From the NCBI GenBank assembly GCA_000004985.1, contig GG738871.1: a DNA stretch of 64,000 nt, one strand, 5' to 3'. Origin of the DNA: Naegleria gruberi. Its lineage: Eukaryota. Shown here piece by piece: positions 9,858-63,201 of the stretch; the stretch's first letter is position 1; each line of letters starts with the position of its first letter. Below the pieces are notes generated by a model, which saw nothing but the letters and a program-made list of their open reading frames with translations, was not told where the DNA came from and searched no databases. A program made the position numbers and the translations under genes.

Positions 9858-10440
9858 TTATTGGTTATTATTGGCTACATTTCCTCCATTTTGAACTGCC
9901 AACATATTGATGTAGTTAATGTAATTGATTTTTCCTGTATTTTCTGGGTCAACATTAGCAAGCAATTCGGTTGCTTCCTGTAGAGTGATTGGGTTGTCTC
10001 CATAAGTTGTCAGAGCATGTTCCAAAGTTTTGGTTCTTACTACACCATAAGGGCAATCCTCGGTTTCAAAAGTTTTAAATGCATTAATATATTGATCAAC
10101 TGTGTATTGTGATTGAACACTTCTCGACATGACAGCAACAAATTCCTCAAAATCAATAGCTCCTGAATTATCAGCATCACTATCAACATAATAAATAAAA
10201 TAATAATAAGGAAACCTACGCTTCCTTCATCATTTCCTGAATTTCTTCCTCCGAAGGCTTCAATCCCAATGTTCTCATTAATGTACCTAATTCTTCCTGT
10301 TCGATTGATCCACCTCCATCTCTATCGACAAGTTGAAAAATTTCTCTATATCTTCTTACATCTTCGTCCGAAACTTGATGACCAAGCACCGTTGATTCAG
10401 CTTTTGAAGTTGGTGCAATGTAGCTTTGTTTTTTCTTCAT
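9858..10440 (-). CDS. EF-hand calcium-binding protein (calmodulin/centrin/myosin-light-chain-like); exons 10221..10440 and 9858..10179
   Basis: The loop DRDGGGSIEQEEL sits in exon 1. A 41-nt intron (GTAGGT...ttgatag) is followed by DADNSGAIDFEEF in exon 2. A further EF-hand follows (DPENTGKINYINY). Confidence 0.7.
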
Positions 10441-10566: not shown

Positions 10567-12234
10567 TTACTTGAAGAGCTTTTCGAAGGTTTCGAAACCA
10601 CCAGCAAGATTCTTAACATTTTCCAAACCATTTTCGTTCAAAATTCTTTGGGCCATATATCCTCTCATACCAATTTTACAATATGTTACAATAGTCTTAT
10701 CCTTTGGAAGTTCAGAAATCTTTTCTCTCAATTGTTCAATTGGGATATGGATAGCACCTTCAAAGTGACCAGATTGGAATTCTCTTGGAGTTCTAACGTC
10801 AACCAAAGCATATTGATCTCTGTTAGCCAAAACTTCTGGAATGTGAACCATTCTTTGTTCACCTCGCAAGAGACCACTAGCAATGAAGCCAATCATGTTG
10901 ACTGGATCCTTAGCAGAACCATATTGTGGTGAGTAGGCAAGTTCTGATTCTTCCAAATCAAAGACAGTCATACCACCTTGAATAGCCATGGCGATAGCAT
11001 TAATTCTATTGGCAATACCATTGTGTTCACCAACAATTTGAGCACCCAAAATCTTACCATAATTTTCCTTAGAAGTGTCGAAAATCAATTTGAGAATCAT
11101 TCTCTTAGCACCTGGATAATAACCAGCATGGTCATTGACAGGAGTGTAAACCTTTTCATAAGTTGTGTATCCAACTCTTTGGAGACTCTTTTCACTGGCA
11201 CCAGTACCAGCAATAGTATAGTTGAAACCACCCATAATACTTGTACCTTGGGCACCTCTGAATGAATCTGGAGTCTTACCAAACATATGGTTGACTGCAA
11301 TTCTTCCTTGTCTGTTAGCAATACCTGCCAATGGAATTTGAGTCCTATTCTTCAAAACGAAATCTTCAATTTCAGTGTTGTCACCACAAGCATAAATATC
11401 AGGATCAGAAGTTTGACAGTTTTCATTAATTACAATACCACCTCTTGGACCAACCTTCAAACCAGATTCGACAGCCAATTTGTTTTCTGGCTTAACACCA
11501 ACAGATAAAAGGACGAAATCAGCATTAACAACCTTTCCACTTTCAAGATGAACATTAACAGTTCCATTTTCACCTTCTCCGAATTTAACACACTTTTCTT
11601 TCAATAATAAATTAACACCACTAGCCTTATAATCTTCCATCAATGGTTGAACCATTTCCTTATCCATTGGTGGCATAATTTGATCCAATAATTCAATAAT
11701 GCTGACATTGACACCAGCATGAGTGATAGCTTCAGCAACTTCACATCCAATGAAACCACCTCCGATGATAACACCCTTCTTTCCTGGAACAATGTGTTGC
11801 TTAATCTTGTCCATATCTTCCAATGAACGTAAAATGTGAATAAGTGGATTATTAATACCTTCCCATGGTGGAATAATTGGTTCAGCACCAGTTGAAAGAA
11901 CTAGCTTATCATAATTTTCGGAATATTCAGATTCCTTAGCCTTGCAAATAACTTGCTTGTTGGCTCTATCGATTTTGATGACTTCAGTTTCAACTCTGAC
12001 ATCAATGTTGTATCTTTTTTTTAAAGTATCAACTCCGGTAACAATCAAACTGTCTCTGGAAGCAATTTGACCACCAAGAAAATATGGCATACCACAGTTA
12101 GCAAATGAAGGATTCTTTCCCTTTTCGAACAAGACAATAGAAACCTTTTCGCAAATTCTTCTAAGTCTAGTGGCAGCAGAAGCACCTCCAGCGACACCAC
12201 CAACAACTACAACTTTGTGAATCAATGATGACAT
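10567..12234 (-). CDS. bacterial-type CoA-disulfide reductase / NADH oxidase (pyridine nucleotide-disulfide oxidoreductase) fused to a C-terminal rhodanese domain; intronless
   Basis: An FAD-binding GxGxxG is present (VVVVGGVAGGASAA). The redox-active Cys motif is SFANCGMPY. A second Rossmann motif is present (GVIIGGGFIGCE). The C-terminal rhodanese module has an active-site CKIGMRG loop. The ORF is 555 aa and uninterrupted. Confidence 0.8.
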   Translation of the reverse strand: MSSLIHKVVVVGGVAGGASAATRLRRICEKVSIVLFEKGKNPSFANCGMPYFLGGQIASRDSLIVTGVDTLKKRYNIDVRVETEVIKIDRANKQVICKAKESEYSENYDKLVLSTGAEPIIPPWEGINNPLIHILRSLEDMDKIKQHIVPGKKGVIIGGGFIGCEVAEAITHAGVNVSIIELLDQIMPPMDKEMVQPLMEDYKASGVNLLLKEKCVKFGEGENGTVNVHLESGKVVNADFVLLSVGVKPENKLAVESGLKVGPRGGIVINENCQTSDPDIYACGDNTEIEDFVLKNRTQIPLAGIANRQGRIAVNHMFGKTPDSFRGAQGTSIMGGFNYTIAGTGASEKSLQRVGYTTYEKVYTPVNDHAGYYPGAKRMILKLIFDTSKENYGKILGAQIVGEHNGIANRINAIAMAIQGGMTVFDLEESELAYSPQYGSAKDPVNMIGFIASGLLRGEQRMVHIPEVLANRDQYALVDVRTPREFQSGHFEGAIHIPIEQLREKISELPKDKTIVTYCKIGMRGYMAQRILNENGLENVKNLAGGFETFEKLFK

Positions 12235-12795
12235 TTTGAGCTATTTTGTTTGTATAATTTTTGGGTAGAGTTGTATGATGCTTGTTGGCTATTTATTCAA
12301 ACCATGACGAGGCCACTTGGAGAACTAAAAAGGTGAAATTAGTGTCGGCGAAAAATATTGGGGCCGAAATGTTGAACGTAATGATGGGAGAGAAGGCACA
12401 ATTGCCTGGTTTCTCCATTACTCAAAAGACACCTCAAGACAAGGATGGAAATTACATGTATCTTGAGTTGTCTGGATAATAAAATGACAAACATTTTTTT
12501 AATTGAAAAAACCACAATAAATTAAGCATCACATGGAGGGAAAGAGCAAGACACTCTTACCTTGCATGAATAGTTAGATTTTTGTTACGTTAATCACTCC
12601 TGGGTACTACTCTCGAATATCATCTTTAATGATACAAGACACGGACTTGGGATAATAATTTGGAATGCTCCTACGGCTGTATGTGACCGAAATCGGATAC
12701 AGTGATTCATATGCGTCCCAAATCTTTCTGGTTTTTCTTTTGGTTCTGTTGTAAAAGATTTAACTGTTTGAGTTTTGGATTCTAAAGTTTTAATT

Positions 12796-13982
12796 TTATC
12801 CATTTAAATCATATTTACAACATGGACAAGTGTGGTTTTCCTCTAACCACTTGTCAATACAGTCTCTGTGAAAAATGTGTAAGCAAGGTAATCTCCTTAA
12901 CTGCTCTCCATTCTGATATTCTTCCATGCAAAATGTACAATTATTATCATCAAAATTATGTTGATTATTGTTAAATATTGTTATTGGAAGATTAGTCAAT
13001 AAATCCTTATTGACACCAATTTTGATATTAGCCTCATCCAATCTTAATAACTCCTCATAAGACTCCTCTCCTGTAAAGTTTTGAACACTTGAGCTAAGGG
13101 GATTAGCAGTACGAATATTTGATGCGAAGGAAGGAGCACTATAGTTTCCTCCAAGATTATTAGAAATTAATTCATCAAAGTTTGTAACTCTAGATTGATA
13201 GCTAGCAAATTCTTCTTGTTGCAATCTTCTGGCTAAGATTTCATCCTCAGAAAGGTTATGTTGTGTAGACGCTGATGCTCGAGAATTATTGGATGAGGAA
13301 GATGCTTCTGATGAGCTACTACTAGTCGTAGTAGTAGATCTTGGAAGAAGTAGTCTCGATTGTGCAGTCTTGGACTTTGAAGCTATTGAGGGTCTCAGTG
13401 AGGGATTTCTAACAGGCTTAATTTCAGAAACTCTCTGAGTGGTCGATGTTGTTGACCCAACCTCTATTGCTCTTTTTACTGCTGATGTTGATGATGTTGG
13501 GGTAGCAGATTTTGTTGATGATGACGAGGTGTTAGTTTTTGTTAATATAGAGGAAGAGTGTGGAATTCTTGTTGGAGTTAGAGTAGATGGTGGTTTGTAT
13601 AATGATGGTTGAACTGTGGCAATAGTTGGTGGTGAATCTTTGTTTTTTCCTATTATTGCAAGATCATCATTTCCAGAGTTTAAATGTACTGCTGATCCAC
13701 TTGGAGATTTGTCCTTTGCTCGTAATTGTCTTTTCAGAGCATCATTACTAGCCTCTAATTGTTTAATCAATTCTTTAGCTCGCCCTAATTCATCTTCCAA
13801 ATATTTGATCTTTTTATCCTTTTCTTGTGTTTCCCTGCAGAATTTTATAATAAATTATTACTAATAATTACTAGTACATACACCTCAAAACCACTGATTT
13901 TAATGGCTGCCTCCTCTAAAGCTAACTCCAAGGCATAAGAGTTGGTGTTCGGATTTCCAAAGTCGTGGAAGGTATTTTGCAT
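12796..13982 (-). CDS. RING-H2 (C3H2C3) E3 ubiquitin ligase with N-terminal CUE-like/coiled-coil region and S/T-rich linker; exons 13882..13982 and 12796..13834
   Basis: The C-terminal RING-H2 is CTFCMEEY...LPCLHIFHRDCIDKWL...CPCCK. A 47-nt intron (13835..13881; GTATGT...ctgcag) joins ...KISGFEV to ETQEKDKKIKYLEDELGRAK in phase 2. The start is placed at the second ATG to avoid overlapping the VPS45 3' end. Confidence 0.6.
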
Positions 13983-14097
13983 TTTTATTTTTGTTGGTTT
14001 GCAATTTTCGTTGTTGAGCGGTAAATTTTGGCGGCAAACAATAGTTTCCTCAATCAACACCACTTTCTTTGGTAATGAGGATGATCTTTTGGTGTTG

Positions 14098-16023
14098 TTA
14101 ATCTTTTTCATACATTCTTTTTAATTCTTTGAGGTAGGTAGTACTATTTACAATACAAGTTCCTCCAAGAATGACAGATTTGAAATTGTCATCAAGTTGA
14201 TTAAGTGAGCTAATAACACCTAACTGAAGTGATTTTTGTTCCTCTTCCTTTCTTCTTGATTTGTTATTGAATAACTCTACAGTAGACGCTTCCTCATAAG
14301 TGATACCTCCAACAATAAATACAATTACTTCTTGTGGAACTTCTCTTGATGTCAATCCCATAAATGGATAATCTGTGAGGGATAACTTTCCTTTAAATAA
14401 TTGATCCAATGTATCATAAAGACGAGGTTTGTGTTGAGTGAAAACATTTAAAACTTCCTGATCTTTGAATTCATTGGCCACCTTTTTAAATAACTCTTTG
14501 AAAGAAATAGAGGTTGGCTCCTCATCGAACAAACCTTTGGTACGTTTTGCCTTACCTCCGTGTTCAATAGCATTGTCAATCAAACCAATGTCCTCAACAC
14601 CATTTCTACGAAGAATAGTCTTTAAGGTTCTTATATTATCAATATTATCTTCATATCTCAAAGCATAAAGAATTACCAAACGAAGAGCATCCTTTTCAGA
14701 TGTTGTTTCTCTACTCAATATGTCTTTCAAAGCTTCAAAATTTTTGTTATGATTTTTTCCACAAACAATCTCCTGCTCAACCTCACTAACATCTAAGAGT
14801 TTACGCTTAGCCACAATAGATCTCAATTCTGTAACCATAGTGACATGCTTCTCTGTTTCTTGTTGTTGCTTCTTAAATGATGGGAAATTTTGCATAAAAT
14901 TGGCCAAATCCTCAATTGTCTGGATGCTTTCCTTCATGTTGTGATTTTCTTGGAAGACTTCTACAACCTGCTTTACATTTTTACACAAATCTCCCCAGTT
15001 TTCATACATATTGTTCGAGTAAAATTCGTCATATTGAGCTGAAAATACTTCCTCTCTCTTGGTTGATGGATATTTGATAACATTGTTTTTAAGGCCAATC
15101 AACTCATGAATCATAGCTTGATACGTCCATTGCATTAAAAGAGGTGTCACTGGATCATCTCTACGATCAATTATTAGTACAATTGGTTGAGGAGGGGCTT
15201 TAGTATGGTATCTTGTTTCGTAATCCATTTTGAAATCAAAAATGCCATTATCATGACTATTTGTTGAGATTTTTTCACCAAGCTCGGTAGCAATCTTTTT
15301 ACAAATATCTGATGATTGTTGAAATCTAATAATTGGTCTCTTTTTTAGTGAAATTAATGAACTTGACAAGCCATCAATAATTCTACGAAAGGCAATGTCA
15401 TCCCATGAATTATTCAGTATTGATGCTGTACTTGAAATATTGAGGGAAAATATTGATTTATCCACAGCTAAATAATCTGTAAAATATTCAAATACATTCT
15501 TAACTAGTTCATGTTTGTCACTTGAGGCAAGTTTTTCTAACAAGTGTTGACTAATTACATTTGAAAAATCTTTTTTGCATAATGTTTAAAATTTTCAACT
15601 TGAATAAAACTTACAAATATTATATGATTGATACTTTGGATTAACAAGTTCTGCCTTAAGTAATTCCACATTACCATTCGTTGGCCTGACAAATACTATT
15701 GCTCTCATATTCTTGAGTGATTGTCTTGCTTCATTTTGCAGCACATCAACGAGAAAGACATTCTTTTGCATGATGGAGCTGAATGGTGTGACCACAGAAA
15801 TTATATCTTTCTATCATCGGAACACATAGTTGATCAGAATTCTATTATTCTATTCTACTAGTACACTTACTGTAAATTCATCAAGAATTAATACTTTCAC
15901 TCCACTCACACTGTCAACCATATCTAAAATATATTCGTTAATTGACTTGGCAACATTCATTCTCCTTTGATCCTCTGCTGTTTGTACAGCATTATTTGAT
16001 GATGGATTATTGTTGTTGAGCAT
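14098..16023 (-). CDS. vps45: VPS45 (Sec1/Munc18 family vacuolar sorting protein); exons 15871..16023, 15615..15810, 14098..15569
   Basis: LIIDRRDDPVTPLLMQWTYQAMIHELIGL matches the VPS45 hallmark. Exon 2 (NMRAIVFVRPT...PKYQSYNI) and exon 3 (YFSNVISQHLL...) match the VPS45 N-terminus. The introns are 60 and 45 nt with GTAAGT donors. Confidence 0.85.
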
Positions 16024-16255
16024 TTTTATTTGATGTTGTTTTCAAATTGTTTTCTATTTGTATCACTTTCCATGTTTATGAAACAACGGATCGATAGAAG
16101 CCCTTTCAACGTTTATTGATGACAAATCAAACTCTTCCTGTTACAATAAATCTAGGAGTGAAAAGAATGATTGAATCCTATTTTAATCTTCTACAATTAA
16201 AAATTGATTAACTTTGAGGGTTGAGAAACAGCAGCAATCAAAATCTTAAAAAAAA

Positions 16256-17492
16256 ATGAGCGTAAAAACCAAGGCTTCTCTGCCTTCACAAGAATCATCG
16301 AATTCTTCCTCTCAAAAATTTCTCATCATCTCTGGTTTATTGTTGGGATTTTCGATTGTTTTTCGCTTTGTTAATAGACAATTGGATTCCGAAACGAATC
16401 AATCCTTCTTCGGAGATATTATTAATGTTTTCTCCTCCTTTTTATTTACAGTTTTATTGATTATGTTTTCTCTCTGTATATTAATGTGCTCTATATTATT
16501 CTTGTTACTTTTCCGTAAAGGAAAACCAACACATATTCAATCATCAAATGCTGGTATTGATATTTCTAGTAAAGTAATTGTTAGTGAGAAGGCAATTAAT
16601 GATATCAATGACGAAAGTGTATTTTTCGTTAGAGAACAAGAAAGTGATGACGGAGATTGCAAATGGTTGAACATTATTCTCAATAGAGTTTTACAACAAT
16701 ATTTCTATAAGAATGCTTCTAAAATCAAAAAACAAATTTTACAAAAAGTTTCAGAGGAAATGAAATTACCAGATTTTGTTGGAGATTTACAAATTAAAGA
16801 TTTGAATTTTGGATCAAAATCACCATATTTTAAGACCATTTCTGCAAAGGAAGATAGAAATGGATTGCAAGTTGATATTGCTGTAGTTTATGATGATCCA
16901 AAAACAAAGATTCACCTCGGAACTGAAATTTGGATTAATTATCCAGTTAAGAGATTTGCCTCATTCCCAATTCAATTTGCCATTGAAAATATTTTCCTTG
17001 ATGCTAAGGTATGTTAAATTTAGGAATATGATTCAGATCTTACCTTGTGCTAAATAGATGAGAGTAATTTTATCACCAGATTTCAAATTGCTCAAGTTCT
17101 GTTTCCTCAAACAACCAAACTTTGATTTGATCTTTTCTAATGAATTTGGACATCATTCTTCACTTCAAAACTTGCCAATCTTGACTGACATTATTAATAG
17201 ACAAATTTACCTCTTATTGAGTGAAACATTGGTAGCTCCTAACTTTATTGAAATACCAATCCCAGAACCAAGTGAAAAAAAGACTAAGAAGAGTGAACAA
17301 GAAGATGAAGCTGATGTTCAAGCTGATAATGGAGAATACTCTAGTGATGATTTAGAAAGTAATAATGACGATGAATTATCTTCAAGAGGAAGTGATGATG
17401 AAGATACAATTGAAGAGGATCAATCAAGACAAAGAATAACAAATAGAAAGACTAAACGTTCTACTACTAGGCCAACATCCAACAAGAAGTAA
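16256..17492 (+). CDS. N-terminal TM + SMP (synaptotagmin-like mitochondrial lipid-binding) domain lipid-transfer protein (Mmm1/TEX2-Nvj2-like) with acidic C-tail; exons 16256..17008 and 17058..17492
   Basis: Two TM helices are followed by ...DGDCKWLNIILNRVLQQYFY... , which is the typical start of an SMP domain. A 49-nt intron has donor AAG|GTATGT and acceptor ctaaatag|, in phase 0. Confidence 0.55.
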
Positions 17493-17609
17493 ATATCCAT
17501 TATTTAAAAAACAATAAATCAATAATATAATTTTAAATAATAATTGTTATTAATATATGTCGAATTTTACAATCTGTTAAATACTCCGCTATCCAAGAAA
17601 AGCTTTCAT

Positions 17610-17909
17610 CTATTGATCCTTTGTTGATTCAATAACATCTACAATTTGTTTCACTTTCTTGCTCAAACGGGCAAGATTTGTTGTTGATGTAGTGATTTGA
17701 GAACCTTGTTCGGATGATTGTTTTTCAAGGGCAGCAATTCTCTTTTCCAATTGTTCAGCTTCACTAACAGCTTGTTTAACAAAATTATGTGTATCCATTA
17801 TAGTACTTTCCAAAGCACGGGATGTGTTATAAACATCTCTACGAAGATAATAATAAGAAAATGTTGTGCCGGTAATAGCTCCCAAAGCGAATGGTAATAA
17901 TCTGCTCAT
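17610..17909 (-). CDS. small (~99 aa) N-terminally anchored coiled-coil protein, hypothetical
   Basis: The ORF begins with a hydrophobic segment (LLPFALGAITGTTFSYYYL) and then has a heptad-like region (EAEQLEKRIAALEKQ). Confidence 0.35.
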   Translation of the reverse strand: MSRLLPFALGAITGTTFSYYYLRRDVYNTSRALESTIMDTHNFVKQAVSEAEQLEKRIAALEKQSSEQGSQITTSTTNLARLSKKVKQIVDVIESTKDQ

Positions 17910-18445
17910 TTTTTGTTGTTGGTGTGCTTTTTGATTGTTGTTGTTTGATAAACAAAGTAATTTTAATAATATCAATATTTGGTCATGTTGAGGATTGGTA
18001 TTAACCTTCAACTGCTCTAATAACTTGTCGTGAAAATTAATAGTATTATTTGAAATTAAATTGTATAGAATTTTTCATCAGTTTTCTATTTATTTTCTCC
18101 TTCAAACTGCAAATTGAACTGTAAAACAGAACACGGTTTTCAGAAATTAATTGACAAGAATAAATTTTGTTTGGTGTAATCATGAGTATGTTAGCCATTA
18201 ATACAACCAACATTCTAATATCGATTGACGAATTAATTATCAGAATTGAGTCCAACATTTTGAGGTTGAAGGCTTTTCTCTCTTAAAAATGGCTGGTAAA
18301 ATTCTCATTGTAAACAGATATATGACTTGGTAAACCACTGAATGCCATAAATTTTGTTGAAAAAAAATCGCAAAAAGGTAACTATAGCTCGCATTTTTTA
18401 TTGCTCACTCTAAACTCTAACTTGTTTGACAAACAAAAAACAGAG

Positions 18446-18871
18446 ATGAACTCAAATAAGCAAGCTTTCAAGGTTTTCACCTACAGAGGTCACAATTTGG
18501 ACGCCCTCATGGCCATGGAAAATGACGAATTGAAGAATTTGTTCACTTCTGCTCTTAGAAGAAGAATTGGTAAGGGTATCTCCAAGAAGTACAAGACTTT
18601 GATCGAAAAGGCTCAAAAGAAGAGAGACACTGCTCCATACGGTGAAAAGCCAGACGCTGTCAAGACTCACTTGAGAGATATGATCATCTTGCCAAGCATG
18701 ATTGGTTGTGTTATTGGTGTTTACCAAGGAAAGGACTACGTCTCCGTTGAAATCAAGCCAGAAATGGTTGGTATGAAGTTGTCTGATTTCTCCCTCACTT
18801 ACAGACCAGTTAAGCACGGTAAGCCAGGTATCGGTGCTACTTCTTCATCTAAGTTCGTCCCATTGAAGTAA
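18446..18871 (+). CDS. rps15: 40S ribosomal protein S15 (uS19)
   Basis: FKVFTYRG..LD.L..M...EL..L...RRR..KG........L..K......AP.GEKP..VKTHLRDMIILP.M.G...GVY.GK....VEIKPEMVG..L..FS.TYRPVKHG.PGIGAT.SS.F.PLK matches eukaryotic RPS15 across its full length. Confidence 0.9.
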   Translation: MNSNKQAFKVFTYRGHNLDALMAMENDELKNLFTSALRRRIGKGISKKYKTLIEKAQKKRDTAPYGEKPDAVKTHLRDMIILPSMIGCVIGVYQGKDYVSVEIKPEMVGMKLSDFSLTYRPVKHGKPGIGATSSSKFVPLK

Positions 18872-18969
18872 ATCATTTATCATAATAAATTAAATATTAA
18901 AAAAAACAATTATAAAAATTGGGATTTTATTTTGTTATTAAAATTCATTTTGAAAGTTATTTTTGTAAA

Positions 18970-19614
18970 TTAAACAAGGGATTTTACTTTTTCAAAATAG
19001 GGAGAAATACTCCAAGATTGAGAATAGAAAGCCAGAGTGGTGTTGCTGAGAGAAGTACTTCCTTGTGAATCGTCTTTCTTCTTTGATTGATTTTCATTCA
19101 AAAATTCCTTTCGGTCTGTTGTTGTCATTCGTTTGCATTCTGAAAGTATGAGTTCTTTCATGGTGTAATCCTTTTGTAACAATTCTATTATTGATTGAAG
19201 ATACAGATTTTGTTTCTCAGTTGTGCAGGTTGACAGTAAAGTAATCAATTCCTGTAAATATCCATTCATTGTGACATGTATTAAATTATTCAATCTGGTA
19301 ACAAGATTAAGAATTTCCGAATATACTTTTCTGGTCACATTCTGTTTTAAAACATCTCCTATTACCATTGGACATTGTTGAAATACTCCCCAGTAAGGAC
19401 TCTCCATATAGTCTTCTTCAATTAATGATTTTTCCAGACCCGATAAAATATCATTTCCATCCAAAATCGTTTCTCCCCATTTTTGAATTATTAATTTAAC
19501 TTTTGGTAGTATCAACCCGAGTGGATTTAAACTTGATGTATTGTTATTCTTACTATTTACATATTGTTCCGATTGTTTGTGTTGTTGCTGATTATTGTTG
19601 GCTTTTAAACTCAT
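18970..19614 (-). CDS. hypothetical protein, poly-N/Q N-terminus, helical-repeat C-terminus
   Basis: ORF of 214 aa. Its ATG overlaps the stop of the upstream CWC25-like ORF in the sequence ATGA. I recognised no domain. Confidence 0.4.
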   Translation of the reverse strand: MSLKANNNQQQHKQSEQYVNSKNNNTSSLNPLGLILPKVKLIIQKWGETILDGNDILSGLEKSLIEEDYMESPYWGVFQQCPMVIGDVLKQNVTRKVYSEILNLVTRLNNLIHVTMNGYLQELITLLSTCTTEKQNLYLQSIIELLQKDYTMKELILSECKRMTTTDRKEFLNENQSKKKDDSQGSTSLSNTTLAFYSQSWSISPYFEKVKSLV

Positions 19615-20201
19615 TTTTTCTTTTCTTTCAAAAACTTTTTTGTCTTTTCATCTTCTCTTTTACTTCTTTCTAAATATTCTTTCATGAGATCTTCATCCAT
19701 GGATGATGATTTTGTGGAGTTGTTAGAGGATGATTTCTTCTTTTCTGATGATTTTTGAGTGGCTTGATCTACTACTTTGGATTGACTTGGTGTTATAGGA
19801 GTATTGGTAATAATATTATTTTGAGAATTTACCACTTTGTGAAATAATGATTTTGAGTCATAGTTCAATACATCTTTAAAGGTGGTAATTTTAGAGTTGT
19901 TAATCAATGATTCTTCAGTTTTCTTCTTTTCAATATTTAAATTTGAAGGTGAAGTAGTGGTAGGATCCTTCCGAGAGTGATCAATCACCTTAACTTGTTC
20001 AATTGTTGAATTTGATTTTACTTTTTTAAATTGTTCATAATTTTCTTCCGATTGTTCCTTCTTTCTCTTTCGTTCTTGTTCTTTTTGTTTTTCATTTTCA
20101 ATAGATTTAATCTTGTTTACTTTTTCTCTGTTTTTTTCTGAAGAGATGTGCCACGATTTTTTAGAGAGCAAATCAGACATTTTTTTATTATTTAAATTCA
20201 A
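19611..20201 (-). CDS. CWC25-like pre-mRNA splicing factor (Cir_N domain); likely start at second ATG (20180)
   Basis: The N-terminus MSDLLSKKSWHISSEKNREKVNKIK..E matches the CWC25 N-terminal signature (LKKSWHP...N.EKVWK.EQ). The remainder is K/E/R-rich. Confidence 0.55.
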   Translation of the reverse strand: MNLNNKKMSDLLSKKSWHISSEKNREKVNKIKSIENEKQKEQERKRKKEQSEENYEQFKKVKSNSTIEQVKVIDHSRKDPTTTSPSNLNIEKKKTEESLINNSKITTFKDVLNYDSKSLFHKVVNSQNNIITNTPITPSQSKVVDQATQKSSEKKKSSSNNSTKSSSMDEDLMKEYLERSKREDEKTKKFLKEKKK

Positions 20202-20232
20202 TAAATATTACAATTTCCTTAATTTACAATAC

Positions 20233-21173
20233 TTAATTCAATTTGATATTGTTACTTTCCTTTTCATAGACAGCATCTTCATCAGATCCTCTCAAAATTA
20301 AACGATCATCACTATCTGGAATGTCAACAATTAAAGAGTGGAATGTGAAACGATTTCTAATAATATTTAAAATTCCACTCTTTCTAGAAGCATCACAAGA
20401 AATCATGGCAGTCTTTTTGTTTGGATCTTGAAGTTGGAAAATGAGTTGAACTCTTTTTGGTTTCCAGAATTGAAGCTTTCTAATAAGTGGAACATCGTGA
20501 GCATTATTAAAATCTGGATAAGTGTATGAGTAAGCTCTGAATTTTCCAGGAGTGAGTGGAGTGAGCATATTATCTCTGACACTCTTATTGGCTAAAACCT
20601 TTTTAACAGCAGCTTTATAAACAGCTGATGGACTAATACTGAATGAAACAACTGCCAAATAACTAAGTCCACATGAAATTAAACCAGTGAAGAAACCAGT
20701 GTAAAATGAAACTGTAGCAACATTCTTAAATGTGATAGAACTCAACCAATCAGTAATTTCCCAAACTATTCAACTATTTAATATTAAAATCCAATATACA
20801 TACCAATCCACAAAACACCAAATATTGCTGTTGAAATGATGGCATATCTTACAAAGTACATTTTCCAAAATTTAACAAGAAGTGGAATGTTAATATCTGG
20901 TCTATCTTCATCCATAATACGTTCCTTATCGTTGAAAACTTCAACAGGGACAATTTCCTTTTCCAAATCCCTTTCTTCTTCATAAATAAATAATTTTTCA
21001 TCCTTCTTTTGTGGAGTTTTATTTTCTTGTTTTACTTGATTATTCTTTGAATGGAATGAAGCCACAATAAAAGATCTGTTATTAATATGTACAGATGTAA
21101 TTTTTGTTGTTGGTGATGAAAAGAGTGATGGCTTGGCTGTTTTATGGGCCAAGGAAATTACACGTTTGAACAT
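20233..21173 (-). CDS. hypothetical double-pass membrane protein with N-terminal presequence-like region (possible mitochondrial); exons 20804..21173 and 20233..20765
   Basis: MFKRVISLAHKTAKPSLF is basic and amphipathic, like a targeting sequence. Two TM helices flank a 38-nt intron (GTATGT...gaatag), in phase 1. Confidence 0.5.
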
Positions 21174-21281
21174 TTTTTTTGATTGAATAAAGTTCAATGA
21201 TCTTAAATTATTAAATTGATAATAATAATATTTGCATTGCAATGATATAAATTATTTAATTTCCTATTAGTTTAAACAAAA

Positions 21282-22275
21282 TTATTCAGTCTTCTTAGCT
21301 TTTTCAGCCTTCTTCTTAGCAATTGCTCTAGCATTTTGTTGTCTCAAATTAAAGAACAAAATAAAGAATGAAATAACAATGAAATCACCTGACAATGAAC
21401 CAATCAATGAACCAGTACAAGTGTTTCCCTTAGGTCTTTCCCAGAAGATTTCAACATATGAGTAAGCAGTGAAAGCAGCAGCATCAAAAATGAATTGAGT
21501 TAATTGAATATCAGTCAAATACATCTTCCACCAGACATCAAAACCTAAAGTGACCTTCATGTAGTAATAGTACATAACAATGTGAACAAAAGTATTCAAA
21601 ATAATTGGAATCCATTGTCCAGTACCTCCACTGTACAATCCATAATAACAAATTGACATTGTGGTGACATGGTGATAGGTGTGAATAAATCTGAGTCTAG
21701 ATCTTCTGATAACAAGGAGGAAAGTATCAAAAAGTTCTACATATTTAGACAAGTAATACTATTATTTAAAATTTAAAAATTCAATTTAAAAATTCAATCA
21801 TGTGAAAACATACCATGTAGGTCCAGAATGGAATATAACCAACGTTATACTTATGTTCAGGGTCACACAACAAACTGTAGAAACCATCCTTCAATCCAAT
21901 AGAAGTAACTTCAAACAACAATCCAAAGAAACAGACAAGGGAAATAACAGTCATATTCAAATTATGTAAAAAGGCTAAAACCTTCAAAATCTTTTGTACA
22001 AAGGTTGGATTCTTATGTTCTTGTTCCATTTCCTCTCTGGACTTGGTACCAAGAATAAAACTAAGAGTATAGGAAACAACAAGATATCCGACCAAAGTCA
22101 AACCAATAGATGGTAAACTGGAGAGAGGAGCAGCATCTTGGTCCCAGTTAAATTTGCCACCAACTTCGAGGTAGGTTTCATGAATAGAATTCAATGAAGT
22201 AATATCGAGCTTGTGATAAGCATCAACAAAAGTCTGCAATGTTGTGAGTGGTAACTCTGGATGTGTGGAAGACAT
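21282..22275 (-). CDS. ELO family fatty-acid elongase; exons 21814..22275 and 21282..21758
   Basis: The His box LRFIHTYHH, the MYYYY motif and multiple TM helices are present. A 55-nt intron (21759..21813) has donor ATG|GTATGT. Confidence 0.85.
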
Positions 22276-35456: not shown

Positions 35457-36778
35457 TTACAACAATGAAGCAATGAAAGAAATCAAAGCAATCAAAAGTA
35501 CAGAGAATGAAGAAACAGAGCTAGAATTAATCTTACTTGATTTTGGTGAGGCCTTTGGTGAAATAGTTGGAGTGACAACATCAGCAGCTGGAGCAGGATC
35601 AACACAAGCATCATTTGGAGAGGACAATGAAATAGCTGAAGGATTTGGAATACCAATAGCAGCAACAGCAATTCTACCACCAGCATTACCAGTAGCAGAA
35701 GTTGAAGTACCATCATCTCTAGTGGTGTGAAGAACCAAACCACGTCCAATAATATTTCTAACACCAGTCAATTCAATCAAATCAACATTGAAATCAAAAG
35801 TAGCAATACCACTATCATCAGCAGTAACGTTACCTAAATCACCAACGTGTCTTTCAGTAGATCCTGGATAACCGTGTGTCTTATTGAATGGATTGAAATG
35901 GCCACCAGTTCTAGTACCATCTGTTAAATCAAGTTCACCATAAGTGTGAATATGCAAACCATGAGTTGATTGAGCAGTCAATCCACAAATTTTACCATAA
36001 ACTCTAGTCAATCCACTACCTGAATTATATGAGAAAATAACTCTACCAGTAACATTACCAGTTGCAGCAGCAGTCTTTTGGAAAACAGCAACACCAATAT
36101 TATCAGTATAAACATCATTATAAGTCATAGTATTAGCAGCATTATTTGCAATACCAATTACACAATGAGCTGCAGGATTACTGGCATTACCAGTTGGTTG
36201 AGCAATTTTACCCAAATCAGCTGCCATATGTAAACGAATAGCTCTACCAACAACACTAATACTTCCATTAAATTGTGGAAGAGTTGAAGTAATAACACCT
36301 GAATATCCCTTTGATAAATCAATATTACCCAAATCACCAATGTGAATATCACTTCCTGTATTATCAGATGGAAGTGCATGATTCTTACCATATGGATTAT
36401 AATGTCCACCAGTTGCAGTAGCATCAGCTAATTTATCATCATTATTATTATTATTATTATTATTAATATATTTGTTACAATATTAAATATATTTGTTACA
36501 ATTAATATTAAAAGTATTTAAAACATACCAATATAACCATATTGATGAATGTGGAATCCTAATGTTTTACCTTGCAAAGCAGTTGGTACAGTTGATTGAT
36601 CCAATGACCAAGCAACACTTGTAGTTCCATCACTTGATTGTGTGAAATAAACTGCTCCTTTTAATCCTTTAGCATAGGTTGTACCTCTCAAGAGACAATG
36701 AGCAATTTGACCATTAATTGATGAAATTAATGAAGCAATGAGAACAAGCAATGTAATTAATAGTAATTTAGAATTCAT
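35457..36778 (-). CDS. secreted, GPI-anchored tandem Cu/Zn superoxide dismutase (SodC-like); exons 36529..36778 and 35457..36427
   Basis: A signal peptide MNSKLLLITLLVLIASLISSINGQ is present. SOD module 1 spans the 101-nt intron (GFHIHQYGYIG|ADATATGGHYNP). Module 2 is GLHIHTYG...GGHFNPF..THG...ERHVGDLGN...GRGLVLH...GNAGGRIAVAAIGI, with all Cu/Zn ligands present. The C-terminus is S-rich followed by a hydrophobic tail (LLIALISFIASLL), consistent with a GPI signal. Confidence 0.8.
36428..36500. repeat. (ATT)n microsatellite plus direct duplication of atatatttgttacaat inside the SOD intron
   Basis: The sequence attattattattattattattatt and the duplicated 16-mer are read directly. Confidence 0.5.
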
Positions 36779-37821: not shown

Positions 37822-40800
37822 ATGTCTTTAAAAAAAAATATTCAGATATTGGTGGATCGTTTAGATTCAACACTCTCTGTGAATTCATCCTCCGATCATC
37901 ATCAAGATCTTAGTAATTATCCTCTTCATATTGAAGATCAATCAGAGGATAACAATAATATTGAACAAGAATTAATAACAGAGAGTCCAACATCTATTTC
38001 AAGACATCAACTCATGTTTAATAGTGGTGGTGCTAATAATAATCACAATCATAATCATAATGGTATGGATCATGATGATGAATTTGATGAAGATTCATTA
38101 TTATTATCCAACAATAATGGAAGTGTAAATAATTATCAAGATGACGACGTTGTGTTAAATTCCTATTTGAATGAAAGGACAATTGGTGATTTAACAAAGA
38201 AACCCTATATTCCATTAAAACAAGATAGAAAGAAAATGACTCGATTACAAAATATTTATTACATGTTTTTACAATACATGATGTTTACTTGGAAGGAAGT
38301 TTCAAAACGTAAAGTTTCATATTTGATTGGAACTGCGAGTTGTTTTGTTGTAGTTTGGATGATTATGGTTTCAGTTTCTGCACTTTCACAAGTTCCTTTG
38401 GTGTTTATTCGTTTGGCAGAGTTACAAGTTGGTGAATTTGATTTTAAATTGAAAACTGGCATTAATATGGCAGGTATTTCACTAAATTATACAAGAATTA
38501 ATTTACAAATTCAAAATGCTACAAGAGGTAATCCTGAAATGACTCAACAATTTTCATATCATTCACCTAGATTTACATTTAGTACAAGGGCATTTACAAA
38601 TTGTGAAAGTATAACACAAGATTTATCTATTTTTAAATATCAAGATTTTAAATGGATGTATAATTCAACAAGTAGTTCATGTGGTTTGAGAGAAAATCAA
38701 AAATCCATTCAATCATCCGATTATAATAATGGACAATATTGTGTTCCAATTGATTGTAAAAAAGTTGCTGAAAGATTATCACTTTATTTAATTGATACTG
38801 ATAAAGAACGTAGAATGCAATTCGGAAGAACTTATCCATATTCAAAATTGGAAAAGGGGAAGGCAATTATTGGTTCTGGTCTTGCTGAAACATTATCTGT
38901 TAAAAAAGGTGATACTATTCTATTGAATATTCAAACAATGAATAGCTTTACTGGACCATATCGTGATTCTCACATGATTGGTTATGTCTATCCAAAGGCA
39001 AAAGGATCATTGGAAAAATTAATACCAAAACAAATACAAGAGCTATTGGATAGTAATGAATTTCATGAATTTGAAAGAAAGAATATAAGATCACAAGCAA
39101 TTCTCAATGAAATACTTGAAGAGAAATATTCTGATTTATTCGATGAGGATCAAGCATTGAAAAATAGAAGACTTACATTCAATGGTGGTGCCACTTACAT
39201 TCCAGTAATTGTTGAAGATGTTGCCAATAATGCATATGGAAAATATCAATCAACGAATTTGGAAAATGCAATTATTATGGAATATGATTCATTACTTGCT
39301 CATGTTGCAGAGTTTTTGAATGAAGATCTCTTTTCCAAATCAGAAAAGTCAACTCTTTCACAATTAGATTTGTATGATTATGCCAGTGAAGTTTATGTTA
39401 ATTATCCACCAAATAGATTAACTGCCTATAATGAAAATGATTACAAAGTGATTAGAGAAAAGATTACAAAATTTGCTTCCACTTCAATGTATTTAATGGG
39501 TTTTAATCAACTTTCATCAAGTTTCCCAATATTGGAAATGATGGAAGTTACACAATTTTTTGCCCTCTTTGTTGGTTTAATTATTTCAATCATTTTAATT
39601 GTTTTGTGTTTACTTTCTGTTGTATTAATTTACAGTTTGTTAATGATTAATGTTGAAAATAGAAGATATGAAATGGGTTTATTGAGAATGATTGGTTTAA
39701 AGAGAAGAAATCTTGTTGAACTCATTCTAGTTCAAGCCATGTGGTATGGTATTCCAGCTTGGATTTTAGGGTTAATCATTGGTCAATTATCTTATTCTGT
39801 AGTTGCAATTTTGCTTAGTACTCAATTGGAAGCAAACGTTTCATATATTGTCTCTGGTGAAGCTTTTGCATTGGCAACATTCCTTGGCTTGACTGTTCCT
39901 GTTTTATCTGCCATTTTACCAATCAAGACAGCCCTCGGTCAAAATTTACACGATTCACTCGATACTCAAAGATCAGGAACAGCAGCTGTTAAATATTCAA
40001 TTGAAAGAGCTGAGGGAGAATCCATCTCATGGACATCTATTGTTATGGGTGTTGTTGGTATAATTTTTGGTTTTTCAGTTTATTATGTCATGCCACTCAG
40101 TATGCTTACATTTAATATTACAATTATGATGTACATGTTTATGGCTGTTATTTTGGCCATGTTATTGGGTTTAGTTTTATTGAGTTTGAATTTTGAAAAT
40201 ATTATTGAATTTATTGTAGTTTTATTTACCATTAGAATATTTGAAAAAGTATCAGTTATTGATCTAGTTGAAAAGAATCTAATTGCTCATCGTGAGAGAA
40301 ATAGAAAGACAACTCTAATGTTTTCATTGAGTTTGGGTTTTATTATATTTTCATCTGTTTTATTCAATACACAAATTACAGCATTCAAATATAATGTAAT
40401 GAGAGGTGCAGGAACAGAACTCATTGTTGGTACCAGTAGATTGAATGCATTTGCTCAGAATCCAAATATCATTGGAACTATACAGGAATTTGCTGATAAT
40501 AATCCTAATTGGTTTGTTGGATCCACTTATTGGACATTTGATTTAACAAGAGTTACATCACCAATTGATAATACTAAAATAAGAACTGATGGTGGTCTTG
40601 TTAATAATGATATTTATATTCGTGCCATTGCTCCAAACTTTTTTAATATTACAAATTCAAAGTTTTTAAGAATTGATGAAAGAATTCAACCTGAAAATAA
40701 GACAGTATTTACAAAATATAAGAGTAATTTAGATGAATATTTATATACTGTTGAAGGAAGTAGTCAATTAATATTAGGAACTTATTTTAAATCAAATTTA

Positions 40801-41592
40801 GGAGTTAATATCAAAGATACAGCTGTTCTTCAAATTACTGAATCAACTTCAAGAATGCCAAATTATAGATATGAATTATTCCAAGTTGGTGCTTTTTTGA
40901 GTGCATGTCCAGTAGCTCTCTATTCTGAATTTCCAAGATTTGGAACACAAAATTTACTTGTCAGTGTTCCAACCTATTTACGTCTCCTTGGAAAGAATTC
41001 AAATTATACAGCAACAAGTCTTCCAATTGATGCTGTCTTTTTAAAATTAACTGAAAATGCAAAGAATAATAAGGCTGAATTTAGAAAGTTGAGATCTACT
41101 CTCCAACGTGTCATTAGTCCATTCCCAGGACTATTCATTAGAGATATTAGTCAAGAATTAGATCCAGTTGAAATTGCAGTTTCAGTCATGAACTTTTTCT
41201 TCCTCTTCACAGCAGCAGTTGCCCTCGTCATTTGTTTCTTTAGTTTAATTTCTAGCATGTATAGTAATATTAATTCACAAGCAAAGGAAATTGGAATTTT
41301 AAGAGCTATTGGAATGAAGAAATTTGCAATTATTAGAGTTTACATTTATGAGGCATTTGTTTTGATATCAGCTGCTGCAGTTTCTGGTGTGGCCATTGGT
41401 TTGGCTATTGGACAAACTATGGCTATGCAAAATACCTTAATTACAGAATTACCAATTGATTTTGTATTTCCTTATCAAATTGTTGCACTTGTACTTGGAA
41501 GTGCAATTATTTTTAGTTTCTTTTCTTCCTTCTTCCCTATTTATTCACTTGTTAATATGCCAATTGTTAGCGTTTTGAAAAAACTTAATTAA
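37822..41592 (+). CDS. bacterial-type duplicated FtsX/MacB-like ABC-transporter permease (two [TM - large extracytoplasmic domain - 3-4 TM FtsX] units), with eukaryote-style low-complexity N-terminal extension; intronless
   Basis: FtsX-like modules end each half: ...LLRMIGLKRRNLVELILVQAMWYGIPAWILGLIIGQ... and ...GILRAIGMKKFAIIRVYIYEAFVLISAAAVSGVAIGLAIGQ... Each is preceded by a ~350-aa hydrophilic loop. The N-terminal 170 aa are N/H/D-rich. The ORF is 1256 aa. Confidence 0.7.
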   Translation: MSLKKNIQILVDRLDSTLSVNSSSDHHQDLSNYPLHIEDQSEDNNNIEQELITESPTSISRHQLMFNSGGANNNHNHNHNGMDHDDEFDEDSLLLSNNNGSVNNYQDDDVVLNSYLNERTIGDLTKKPYIPLKQDRKKMTRLQNIYYMFLQYMMFTWKEVSKRKVSYLIGTASCFVVVWMIMVSVSALSQVPLVFIRLAELQVGEFDFKLKTGINMAGISLNYTRINLQIQNATRGNPEMTQQFSYHSPRFTFSTRAFTNCESITQDLSIFKYQDFKWMYNSTSSSCGLRENQKSIQSSDYNNGQYCVPIDCKKVAERLSLYLIDTDKERRMQFGRTYPYSKLEKGKAIIGSGLAETLSVKKGDTILLNIQTMNSFTGPYRDSHMIGYVYPKAKGSLEKLIPKQIQELLDSNEFHEFERKNIRSQAILNEILEEKYSDLFDEDQALKNRRLTFNGGATYIPVIVEDVANNAYGKYQSTNLENAIIMEYDSLLAHVAEFLNEDLFSKSEKSTLSQLDLYDYASEVYVNYPPNRLTAYNENDYKVIREKITKFASTSMYLMGFNQLSSSFPILEMMEVTQFFALFVGLIISIILIVLCLLSVVLIYSLLMINVENRRYEMGLLRMIGLKRRNLVELILVQAMWYGIPAWILGLIIGQLSYSVVAILLSTQLEANVSYIVSGEAFALATFLGLTVPVLSAILPIKTALGQNLHDSLDTQRSGTAAVKYSIERAEGESISWTSIVMGVVGIIFGFSVYYVMPLSMLTFNITIMMYMFMAVILAMLLGLVLLSLNFENIIEFIVVLFTIRIFEKVSVIDLVEKNLIAHRERNRKTTLMFSLSLGFIIFSSVLFNTQITAFKYNVMRGAGTELIVGTSRLNAFAQNPNIIGTIQEFADNNPNWFVGSTYWTFDLTRVTSPIDNTKIRTDGGLVNNDIYIRAIAPNFFNITNSKFLRIDERIQPENKTVFTKYKSNLDEYLYTVEGSSQLILGTYFKSNLGVNIKDTAVLQITESTSRMPNYRYELFQVGAFLSACPVALYSEFPRFGTQNLLVSVPTYLRLLGKNSNYTATSLPIDAVFLKLTENAKNNKAEFRKLRSTLQRVISPFPGLFIRDISQELDPVEIAVSVMNFFFLFTAAVALVICFFSLISSMYSNINSQAKEIGILRAIGMKKFAIIRVYIYEAFVLISAAAVSGVAIGLAIGQTMAMQNTLITELPIDFVFPYQIVALVLGSAIIFSFFSSFFPIYSLVNMPIVSVLKKLN

Positions 41593-51400: not shown

Positions 51401-51523
51401 TATTATGCAGTTACCAAATTATCGTTTGATGAATGGAGAGTGAGAAATGAAAATACATTCTTTAACAGTATAACACAAGAGATTGAAATTACAACAGAAA
51501 AGAAACGAAGTAAATTCTTTTAA
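48419..51523 (+). CDS. MORN-repeat protein with C-terminal PD-(D/E)xK nuclease-like domain and Cys/His cluster; long N/S-rich N-terminus
   Basis: MORN repeats (YKGEWKKGKKEGFGI, YEGEWKENEMNGFGI, YYGNFKKGKRNGFGI, YRGEWLNDVRNGKGE) are present. The nuclease-like core is SKLESRWAKFFECCGIEYQYE...YTPDFYLP...WIEIKP, giving E ... PD ... E-x-K. A CHHC-like cluster follows (WCQCHHCGKISLEYRCKPKCC). Confidence 0.6.
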   Translation: MINSKPKSLLQIAKDRKNKLSSQSSQSSQSSQTSNDNNNTNSSSSLTILNHSSNTSSNNNVNTTNNIGNNSTTTSTNKTTSTCKLIIKPKSSIRLYSETVDLSFEYSSDKESDNDDIQIIHTPVNKKLSTPSSSLTSLSSTTSTPSSLLKSLSLLPNNNNNMTTLKTTTKNEISNNNNNLSSSLSTSTNLIVETYSSLLEDLTQQDDDINSNSLNINSNSLNIKEPLIKKRKQFKIPSFYMTDEEIKHDISLSKTIIPILNIQDKFSIHFTKPFWTIYKDGNEILLLDFRKPIFTNLLFLKLIYYFNFNKTKIIEKSKFIHSIKDLIILLKPYSTLLVNNENLEQLKKEIEIILNEDLKNNFIENENVKYVNNFQYLILEYLNTNIHKFKNTKKSRNLRKLRMCEELLKKEFNSKFIKSFEKSENSFYSDFNFNLYDFMSIYFNKEKFEYLNLNEIDFNNSIKEFHKILNELIISTIYYNKGQYIGDIIATNLLKKSIKNNTTIYGSEYQNSNNDEKQHQYYINSDNSDNDDSDDSDSDEEEEEEENEIILDSHIPHGFGSWKFIEENNEIFYKGEWKKGKKEGFGILQTFEILYEGEWKENEMNGFGIFKILNGYHKGSIYYGNFKKGKRNGFGIQFYKYEGNNEILKDDLNEFNEFYRGEWLNDVRNGKGEFKSKYEWKLGEWKKHEFKNGILLIKECLEIQDSIITNCIHSQIEIEKYSKKTKKSQIPSTILPFIFSLDNLDKLTVVDAIIAYGNQSKSPKRTIYNGYCFRSKLESRWAKFFECCGIEYQYECKTFILKDGTSYTPDFYLPFLNFWIEIKPNYPSEEERVKAQLLSFVLQKQTSNNNQHNELTEFEKKYERYLQSNPRIFILYGDVSAPFIKKFQSGGMAIEFFKTDQQENSIQNRTNKRITPPRSGNTTSTTSNPIRESVLFNTTEPLGWCQCHHCGKISLEYRCKPKCCTNKTADNSTASTSLVDSVVTSELGPTLSNAYYAVTKLSFDEWRVRNENTFFNSITQEIEITTEKKRSKFF

Positions 51524-62740: not shown

Positions 62741-63201
62741 TTTGTTGTTGTTATTATTATGTTGTTATGTTGTTGTTATGTTATTGTTATTATATTATTG
62801 ATAAAGAATCACACAACGATGAAAAATAATGATGTGATGGCGATGATGTATTTTTTTTATTAATGAAAATATCTTGTAAAACACTCCGTTGCAACCTCGA
62901 GGTAATAGAAAGGAGTTAGTTCATCATAAGTTACATGTTCTTGTTAGTCTTGATGATGATGTAAGAAAATTATTGATGAATAGATTTGCATATTGATCAA
63001 ATTGTTATTATTATTAAATAGTATTAAAAGAACATGAACAAGTGCACTGCTGCTAAAAGGTAATATTTAGTGAATATTTAGGAAATATTTAGCCTTCAGT
63101 AGTTGGCGGATCTTGTGTTTTGTACCATATCTCTCAAGACATTGTTACTAACTCTAATTTACATTTCAAAATTGAAAAATAAATATTAAATTAATTATTT
63201 A

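Follow-up and report, generated by a model that had tools for sequence, protein, structure and literature searches.

A probable horizontally acquired and host-adapted bacterial-type CoADR-rhodanese fusion gene in Naegleria gruberi

A stretch of 64,000 nucleotides from Naegleria gruberi (contig GG738871.1 of assembly GCA_000004985.1), here called the window, carries on its minus strand a single unbroken open reading frame (ORF) of 555 amino acids (aa) at 10567-12234, as given by the ORF listing. Its product, which a protein search matched at 100% identity to a "predicted protein" of Naegleria gruberi, has the layout of bacterial flavoenzymes in which a coenzyme A (CoA)-disulfide reductase core (CoADR) is fused to a rhodanese domain (RHD). 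The observations as a whole are best explained by a bacterial-type CoADR-RHD/Npsr/CoAPR enzyme that was first transferred and then adapted to its host, to which we assign a probability of about 0.8. The gene and its parts are located as follows.

10567..12234, minus strand: CoADR-RHD / Npsr-type flavoenzyme, complete single-exon coding sequence, 555 aa plus stop (ORF list, full-length PDB alignments)
11305..12216, minus strand: pyridine-nucleotide-disulfide oxidoreductase module binding flavin adenine dinucleotide (FAD) and NAD(P)H, aa 7-310 (PF07992, PF00070, motifs)
12082..12108, minus strand: SFANCGMPY motif, aa 43-51, with the single redox-active Cys47 (codon 12094-12096) (3nta alignment, translation)
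10924..11223, minus strand: dimerisation domain, aa 338-437, with Tyr372/Tyr373 and Tyr434 (PF02852)
10582..10824, minus strand: C-terminal rhodanese (sulfurtransferase) domain, aa 471-551 (PF00581, 1e-19)

An in-frame TAG lies 9 nt 5′ of the ATG. Pfam assigns Pyr_redox_2 (PF07992, 5e-65) to aa 7-310, Pyr_redox (PF00070) to aa 154-231, Pyr_redox_dim (PF02852, 7.2e-14) to aa 338-437, and Rhodanese (PF00581) to aa 471-551. Two Rossmann motifs are read in the translation, KVVVVGGVAGGA and IIGGGFIGCE...IIELLDQ. The FAD motif GGVAGG is found at aa 12-17, and the NADH motif GGGFIG at aa 156-163 is followed by Glu181; Gly158, Gly160, Gly163, and Glu181 are unchanged throughout an alignment of 20 sequences (A1). 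In the same alignment, Cys47 is unchanged in 20/20 sequences, and there is no second nearby Cys for a CxxxxC disulfide. The rhodanese active-site loop has six residues of the CxxGxR type, C519-K-I-G-M-R within YCKIGMRG (Cys519 codon at 10678-10680), of which Cys519, Gly522, and Arg524 are invariant in A1. Residue alignment to Shewanella loihica Npsr (3nta) pairs Cys47 with Cys43 and Cys519 with Cys531. Thus the core with a single redox Cys motif, the two Rossmann motifs, and the fused C-terminal rhodanese named in the original prediction are all borne out by translation and Pfam.

The dimerisation domain contributes Tyr372, Tyr373, and Tyr434, which are also invariant in A1 and probably complete the active site of the partner subunit. 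Numbering offsets and mutant structure entries would equate them with Tyr361 and Tyr419 of Staphylococcus aureus CoADR. The protein has neither an N-terminal presequence nor a C-terminal SKL-type signal, and is therefore probably cytosolic; orthologs have just 3-10 extra residues ahead of the first Rossmann strand.

When the protein was compared with solved structures by phmmer, S. loihica Npsr came first (3nta, 1.8e-146, query 6-551), followed by Bacillus anthracis CoADR-RHD (3icr, 3.7e-143), Enterococcus faecalis CoAPR (8a56, 3.1e-131), and Archaeoglobus fulgidus Npsr (6pfz, 1.1e-98). An AlphaFold2 model of the ligand-free monomer has a pLDDT of 84.9 and a pTM of 0.82, and it superposes on 3ict, 3nta, 8a56, and 6pfz with template modelling (TM) scores of about 0.88-0.92 over ~550 columns, rhodanese placement included. 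In a comparison with 85 bacterial homologs, the five eukaryotic sequences all retain 115 columns whose conservation among the bacteria reaches 93% or more. Only five such conserved columns are uniformly changed in the eukaryotes (A257S, P305I, A314V, D412N, and V413A), setting them apart from Planctomycetota and other bacterial homologs. Judged by sequence and model, the protein very probably belongs to the CoADR-RHD/Npsr/CoAPR family, that is, the group-3 pyridine-nucleotide-disulfide oxidoreductases (PNDOR) fused to rhodanese. The bacterial character first ascribed to this architecture agrees with the full-length alignments to 3nta, 3icr, and 8a56 and with the homologs described next.

A collection of 5.8 billion proteins including nr, UniRef, and EukProt was searched, and the best 120 of at least 8000 matches were taken. 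Orthologs are found in N. fowleri (85% identity), in N. lovaniensis, which falls in the 90% cluster of N. fowleri, and in Willaertia magna (72%), and several environmental contigs have identities of 74-87%. Among the best 120 matches, N. gruberi, N. fowleri (with N. lovaniensis in its cluster), and Willaertia are the only named eukaryotes. Below Willaertia, identity is 54% or less for all further matches among these 120, the named ones are all bacterial, and the named bacterial ones are 4/4 Planctomycetota.

A donor scan in which each GTDB species was represented by a single genome gave 80 loci. Planctomycetota occupy all of the first 15 places (Gemmataceae, Planctomycetaceae, Rubripirellula, Stieleria, Bythopirellula), after which come Acidobacteriota, Bacillota, Verrucomicrobiota, and others, and no Bacteroidota occur among the best 80 loci. 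The Planctomycetota proteins, called 'FAD-dependent oxidoreductase / CoA-disulfide reductase', are the closest non-eukaryotic homologs among the matches listed, with 52-54% identity at full length. Examples come from Gemmataceae, Anatilimnocola floriformis, Roseiconus nitratireducens, and Rubripirellula obstinata, all uncharacterised. Compared with them, the heterolobosean proteins have short insertions of their own (around residues 390-392, 404, and others).

Neighbour-joining (NJ) trees, unrooted or midpoint-rooted, were built from 90 sequences over 544 columns. The heterolobosean clade of Naegleria, Willaertia, and environmental relatives is monophyletic with 100% bootstrap. Its sister is a clade of 25 sequences, namely 23 from Planctomycetota, one metagenome-assembled genome labelled Bdellovibrionota, and one unnamed. 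Bootstrap replicates join the two at a rate of 75% under Kimura distances, 57% under p-distances, and 82% under gamma distances; restricting the analysis to the slowest 70% of sites also gives 82%. With the oxidoreductase part alone, the split is found in 78.5%. A single-residue deletion near residue 151 is also common to the heteroloboseans and the Planctomycetota clade. Within the heterolobosean clade, Willaertia branches first, then an environmental relative (P0004), and then Naegleria, which fits one acquisition before the Naegleria-Willaertia split.

The most likely course of events is that a single horizontal transfer brought in the whole fusion before the Naegleria-Willaertia split, from a bacterial donor that was probably a relative of Planctomycetota. 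The gene would afterwards have taken on host composition under strong purifying selection; in the N. fowleri/N. lovaniensis lineage it carries an intron.

Several points weigh against this account. The eukaryotic stem is long, and the mean identity between eukaryotes and Planctomycetota (50.8%) is not above the values between bacterial phyla. The 100-residue rhodanese part alone gives no clear sister, either Bacillota or Planctomycetota; the module-wise trees thus give no evidence of separate origins for the two modules, and no independent confirmation from the rhodanese either. The donor trees are NJ rather than maximum-likelihood trees and have no outgroup, with a sampling bias towards the 80 species representatives of highest similarity. 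More distant eukaryotic copies are possible beyond the best 120 of at least 8000 matches. In addition, literature searches in an incomplete collection found no mention of the Naegleria gene or of a eukaryotic CoADR-RHD/Npsr. Support for the donor assignment from the sequence comparisons is moderate, and we regard a Planctomycetota-like donor as favoured rather than firm, because of the long eukaryotic stem and an identity to Planctomycetota no higher than that between bacterial phyla.

The transfer could be real with a donor from Firmicutes, Bacteroidetes, or another lineage outside Planctomycetota, and the original prediction had expected nesting inside Firmicutes/Bacteroidetes clades. Trees of the rhodanese alone place it with Bacillota and with Planctomycetota at similar frequencies, no more than about 30 bits separate Bacillota such as Caloramator from the best Planctomycetota, the mean identity between eukaryotes and Bacillota is relatively high at 47.1%, and p-distances lower the Planctomycetota grouping to the 57% given above. 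On the other hand, both the top of the species-representative list and the named bacterial protein matches consist of Planctomycetota only, the split with the Planctomycetota clade is kept at 75-82% with Kimura distances, gamma distances, and slow sites, and Bacteroidota are missing from the best 80 loci. The expected nesting was not obtained, and a donor other than Planctomycetota is less likely.

In bacteria, the fusion itself appears on plasmids: 352 plasmid records have a match spanning 80% or more of the query, and the fusion is therefore mobile among them. These plasmid homologs are 44-48% identical, and none is near Naegleria. A search of IMG/VR returned no relative that would point to a viral vector. 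One plasmid example is the Klebsiella IncHI1B plasmid NZ_CP056484.1 (L087, 4426-6596), representing conjugative enterobacterial plasmids, where a full-length homolog of 44% identity forms a divergent pair with an ArsR/SmtB-family regulator and is flanked by insertion sequence elements. On a cyanobacterial plasmid, a rhodanese gene is close to the CoADR-RHD homolog.

What the enzyme does can be approached through its characterised relatives. In the family mechanism, a surface rhodanese Cys takes sulfane sulfur, and the pantetheine arm of bound CoA collects it as CoA persulfide (CoA-SSH); the flavin-proximal Cys then attacks, H2S is freed, and the Cys-S-S-CoA mixed disulfide that forms is reduced by FADH2, which NAD(P)H has loaded (PMC7969121, PMC9405070). 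Substrates differ among the members: that of B. anthracis CoADR-RHD is CoA disulfide and CoAPR accepts CoA persulfide specifically (PMC7969121, PMC9405070), whereas the Npsr enzymes of Shewanella and Archaeoglobus have no CoA-disulfide activity, and the A. fulgidus enzyme also has NADH oxidase activity (PMC7969121).

Modelled on the solved bacterial and archaeal enzymes, the Naegleria enzyme would be a homodimer in which NADH reduces FAD. Glu181, which ends the second Rossmann strand, predicts that NADH is favoured over NADPH. FAD would in turn reduce the mixed disulfide of Cys47 with tightly bound CoA. The freed pantetheine arm of CoA would swing to Cys519 in the rhodanese domain of the partner subunit, already loaded with sulfane sulfur from a persulfide or polysulfide. 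The sulfur would return as CoA-SSH, Cys47 would attack, H2S would be released, and a new cycle would begin. The 115 retained columns and the conserved Tyr372, Tyr373, and Tyr434 would give such a CoA arm within a homodimer indirect support. By analogy with these relatives, the protein would most likely be a cytosolic NADH-dependent persulfide/polysulfide reductase, and such a role is rather probable. It could clear reactive sulfane sulfur, that is, CoA persulfide, other low-molecular-weight persulfides, and polysulfide, that comes from sulfidic sediments or bacterial prey, and it might also be an NADH sink under hypoxia. The persulfide/CoA redox capability suggested in the original prediction would agree with the closest characterised enzymes.

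Two observations count against this assignment of function. The characterised members differ in substrate and the query resembles the three to about the same degree, so the substrate is not readable from sequence. Bacterial neighbourhoods hint at function weakly: among 133 flanking ORFs from the 80 bacterial loci, picked crudely as the longest ORF within 1.5 kb, no conserved operon was found, and the most frequent domains were rhodanese (6/133) and a YgaP-like transmembrane domain (5/133).

Three characterised systems can be set beside the Naegleria protein. First, among solved structures Npsr (3NTA) comes closest in sequence, with the identical two-module layout, a TM score of 0.91 to the model, and likewise an NADH-type Glu after the second Rossmann strand. 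However, identity is merely about 42-45%, Npsr has a ~14-residue insertion near query residues 212-225 that the Naegleria protein lacks, and Shewanella is far from the Naegleria clade in the NJ tree. The Npsr host is a sulfur-respiring gammaproteobacterium, whereas the Naegleria protein is predicted in a eukaryotic cytosol, and we know of no sulfur respiration in Naegleria.

Second, B. anthracis CoADR-RHD (3ICR/3ICS/3ICT) is the top structural match (TM 0.92, root-mean-square deviation 2.7 Å, 555 columns, 43-44% identity), and its domain order and both catalytic Cys residues are as in the Naegleria protein. It reportedly acts on CoA disulfide in a cell where CoA is a major thiol, and Naegleria is unlikely to use the enzyme in this way. 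In the tree, Bacillota are not the nearest relatives of the Naegleria protein.

Third, E. faecalis CoAPR (8A56) is a full-length match with a TM score of 0.89-0.93 to the model. It is the best physiological analogy, since it shields the CoA pool from persulfidation (PMC9405070). Persulfidation of its rhodanese Cys508 occurs in cells, and the sulfur travels on a swinging pantetheine arm (PMC9405070). The CoAPR gene is part of a cst-like operon that CstR regulates and that also contains other sulfurtransferases, while the Naegleria gene is solitary among unrelated neighbours.

The protein could instead be a genuine CoA-disulfide reductase, or else act as an NADH oxidase/peroxidase. Its best NCBIfam models are CoA-disulfide reductase equivalogs, the B. 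anthracis enzyme is a close structural match, and NADH oxidase activity is known from the A. fulgidus enzyme cited above. However, the scores fall under all three cut-offs (TIGR03385, 422.8 against 578.8; NF007123, 337.5 against 458; NF010037, 305.9 against 394), so the protein is not filed as a canonical CoADR; these models span residues 6-452 only and do not include the rhodanese module. That module points the other way, because the Cys519 loop is kept under selection and CoAPR needs its rhodanese Cys for persulfide turnover (PMC9405070). The two Npsr enzymes without CoA-disulfide activity (PMC7969121) also argue against this alternative, as does the fact that in eukaryotes the main redox buffer is formed by glutathione-type thiols and not by CoA, and we consider it improbable.

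Vertical descent of an ancestral eukaryotic gene that nearly all other eukaryotes have lost would fit the long eukaryotic stem, which makes the heteroloboseans the most divergent group of the alignment, and would gain from the trees being unrooted or midpoint-rooted only and from any more distant eukaryotic homologs below the best 120 matches. However, the named eukaryotes among those matches come from one family-level lineage (Naegleria, Willaertia), and no broad eukaryotic clade, which the original prediction had set as a refuting outcome, appears among them. The clade joins one bacterial phylum in 57-82% of replicates rather than standing outside all bacteria, bacteria carry the fusion widely and in mobile form, and very many independent losses would be needed. 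We therefore regard vertical descent as very unlikely.

The composition of the gene is that of its host. Its GC content is 0.375 and its GC content at third codon positions (GC3) is 0.27, within the GC3 range of 0.10-0.33 for the other 23 long ORFs of the window and far from the mean GC3 of 0.73 in the nearest bacterial homologs, the Planctomycetota clade. Its codon usage correlates at 0.84 with the pool of the 23 other long ORFs, which themselves range over 0.74-0.98. Window GC averages about 32%, and the GC profile has no step at the gene. For N. fowleri against N. lovaniensis, the ratio of nonsynonymous to synonymous substitution rates (dN/dS) is 0.037; in all remaining pairs it is well under 1, though synonymous sites are saturated there. 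The gene is thus ameliorated to host composition and held by strong purifying selection. The codon usage and AT content had been called host-like from the start, and no GC discontinuity was found.

The gene was also described as intronless, which holds for N. gruberi, Willaertia, and two environmental relatives. It does not hold for N. fowleri and N. lovaniensis, whose orthologs carry phase-0 introns at the identical codon boundary MPPM|DKEM. The N. fowleri intron has 105 nt (GTAAGT...TTAG) with in-frame stops (L001, 10568-10672), and the N. lovaniensis intron has 114 nt (GT..AG) and a diverged sequence (L086, 10583-10696). The equivalent site in the N. gruberi window is at about 11665-11670. 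This intron is either a gain within the transferred gene or was lost in the other lineages. A spliceosomal intron shared by the two species makes a stronger case for a long-resident nuclear gene.

As to expression, the contig carrying P0004 (L084, Logan SRR29605875) has at positions 1-30 a fragment resembling small-subunit rRNA, GTATGGTCGCAAGGCTGAAACTTAAA, joined to the CoADR-RHD coding sequence, which suggests a chimeric RNA-seq assembly. There is a weak suggestion that the gene is transcribed in this relative.

The genes around the CoADR-RHD gene are eukaryotic by Pfam (RGS, EF-hand, RING finger, Sec1/Vps45-like, MMM1), and the adjoining features are as follows.

9858..10440, minus strand: EF-hand (centrin/calmodulin-like) gene, two exons, downstream neighbour (Pfam; spliced translation 180 aa)
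12796..18873, minus strand: upstream block of RING finger, Sec1/Vps45-like, MMM1, small ORF, and ribosomal protein S19 (tblastx, Pfam)

At least two of these neighbours contain introns, which for these two agrees with the original prediction. The EF-hand gene has a GT..AG intron of 40 nt at 10180-10219, verified by spliced translation, and in the Sec1 gene an in-frame stop separates conserved coding segments, which implies introns. The window from 18873 to 9858 is collinear by tblastx with the N. fowleri locus from 1155 to 12544 of L001 (contig VFQX01000033, 723 kb), in the common order ribosomal protein S19, small ORF, MMM1, Sec1, RING, CoADR-RHD, EF-hand. A matching gene order is found on a 749-kb contig of N. 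lovaniensis, so that the flanking genes proposed as a check recur as the same block in independent assemblies. The EF-hand gene is directly downstream of CoADR-RHD also on an environmental Naegleria-like contig (L083). In Willaertia, the flanks are other genes, still eukaryotic: formin, APG6/Beclin, Arf, G-alpha, HMG-box, and NDUFA12.

A misjoin of bacterial DNA to Naegleria sequence, through contamination or in a chimeric assembly, is suggested by the bacterial type of the protein and its lack of an intron in N. gruberi, but is excluded for practical purposes by the identical gene order on contigs of more than 700 kb in the independent N. fowleri and N. lovaniensis assemblies, the eukaryotic context in Willaertia, the spliceosomal intron of two orthologs, the host-like codon usage without a GC step, and the lack of any bacterial sequence above 54% identity among the best 120 matches. 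The CoADR-RHD gene is almost certainly a real transferred nuclear gene. The old, ameliorated horizontal acquisition proposed at the outset is upheld by the narrow heterolobosean clade, the synteny in three Naegleria genomes, and the host-like composition.

The neighbourhood differs among the species in some respects. In N. fowleri and N. lovaniensis, a TPR-repeat gene of ~630 aa lies between RING and CoADR-RHD (L001, 7712-9655; L086, 7812-9746). No trace of it was found across the 64-kb N. gruberi window, where the gap from RING to CoADR-RHD is only 560 bp (12235-12795). A 65-aa ORF upstream of the gene (12282-12479) has no Pfam match and no conservation at related loci, and is therefore probably spurious. 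Synteny with N. fowleri ends just beyond the EF-hand gene. Downstream of that gene, N. fowleri has genes, one of the ELO family among them, whose counterparts in N. gruberi lie on the other side of the block (window 19051-22254 against L001 17659-21745), which suggests a local rearrangement or inversion between the species.

Elsewhere in the window, an unbroken ORF of 1256 aa on the plus strand (37822-41592) has two FtsX-like permease domains (PF02687, 2.8e-28), a host-like GC3 of 0.18, and weak similarity to models of the bacterial ADOP, LolCE, and MacB permeases; it is a candidate second prokaryote-type gene of the window. A 256-aa ORF on the minus strand (35457-36227) has a Cu/Zn superoxide dismutase domain at aa 59-191, with an N-terminal extension of ~58 residues, possibly a targeting or secretion signal, and a C-terminal tail. 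AT-rich stretches with GC of 0.15-0.24 are found at 48419-51523 (plus strand) and 63001-64000, the former inside a MORN-repeat ORF of 1034 aa with a GC3 of 0.10 and short tandem repeats. Scans of the window for tRNA, Rfam families, and tandem repeats gave nothing relevant.

It is well known that Naegleria has metabolic genes of prokaryotic origin, and the chemistry of this enzyme family is established, so current views are not overturned. Public annotations name the gene just "predicted", "hypothetical", or "Rhodanese domain-containing" protein. The locus offers an unusually clean and internally dated case of a bacterial fusion gene turned into a bona fide eukaryotic gene, in which synteny in three Naegleria genomes, amelioration, purifying selection, and an intron in one sub-lineage come together. 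It extends to a eukaryote a sulfur-trafficking family characterised so far only in bacteria and archaea, and it points to an unstudied route of reactive-sulfur handling in free-living amoebae.

More tentatively, and by analogy with the characterised enzymes, this could be the first eukaryotic member of the Npsr/CoAPR group to be described, a cytosolic NADH-linked sulfane-sulfur reductase that detoxifies persulfides and polysulfides and might double as an NADH sink, and one that might be a target in N. fowleri. If this were true, sulfane sulfur might re-oxidise NADH in hypoxic, sulfidic sediments, giving a eukaryote a bacterial-style sulfur-reducing capacity. To our knowledge, humans and other mammals lack the CoADR-RHD family. 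Because N. fowleri carries the gene, the enzyme would then be a parasite-specific redox target and, conceivably, a selective drug target.

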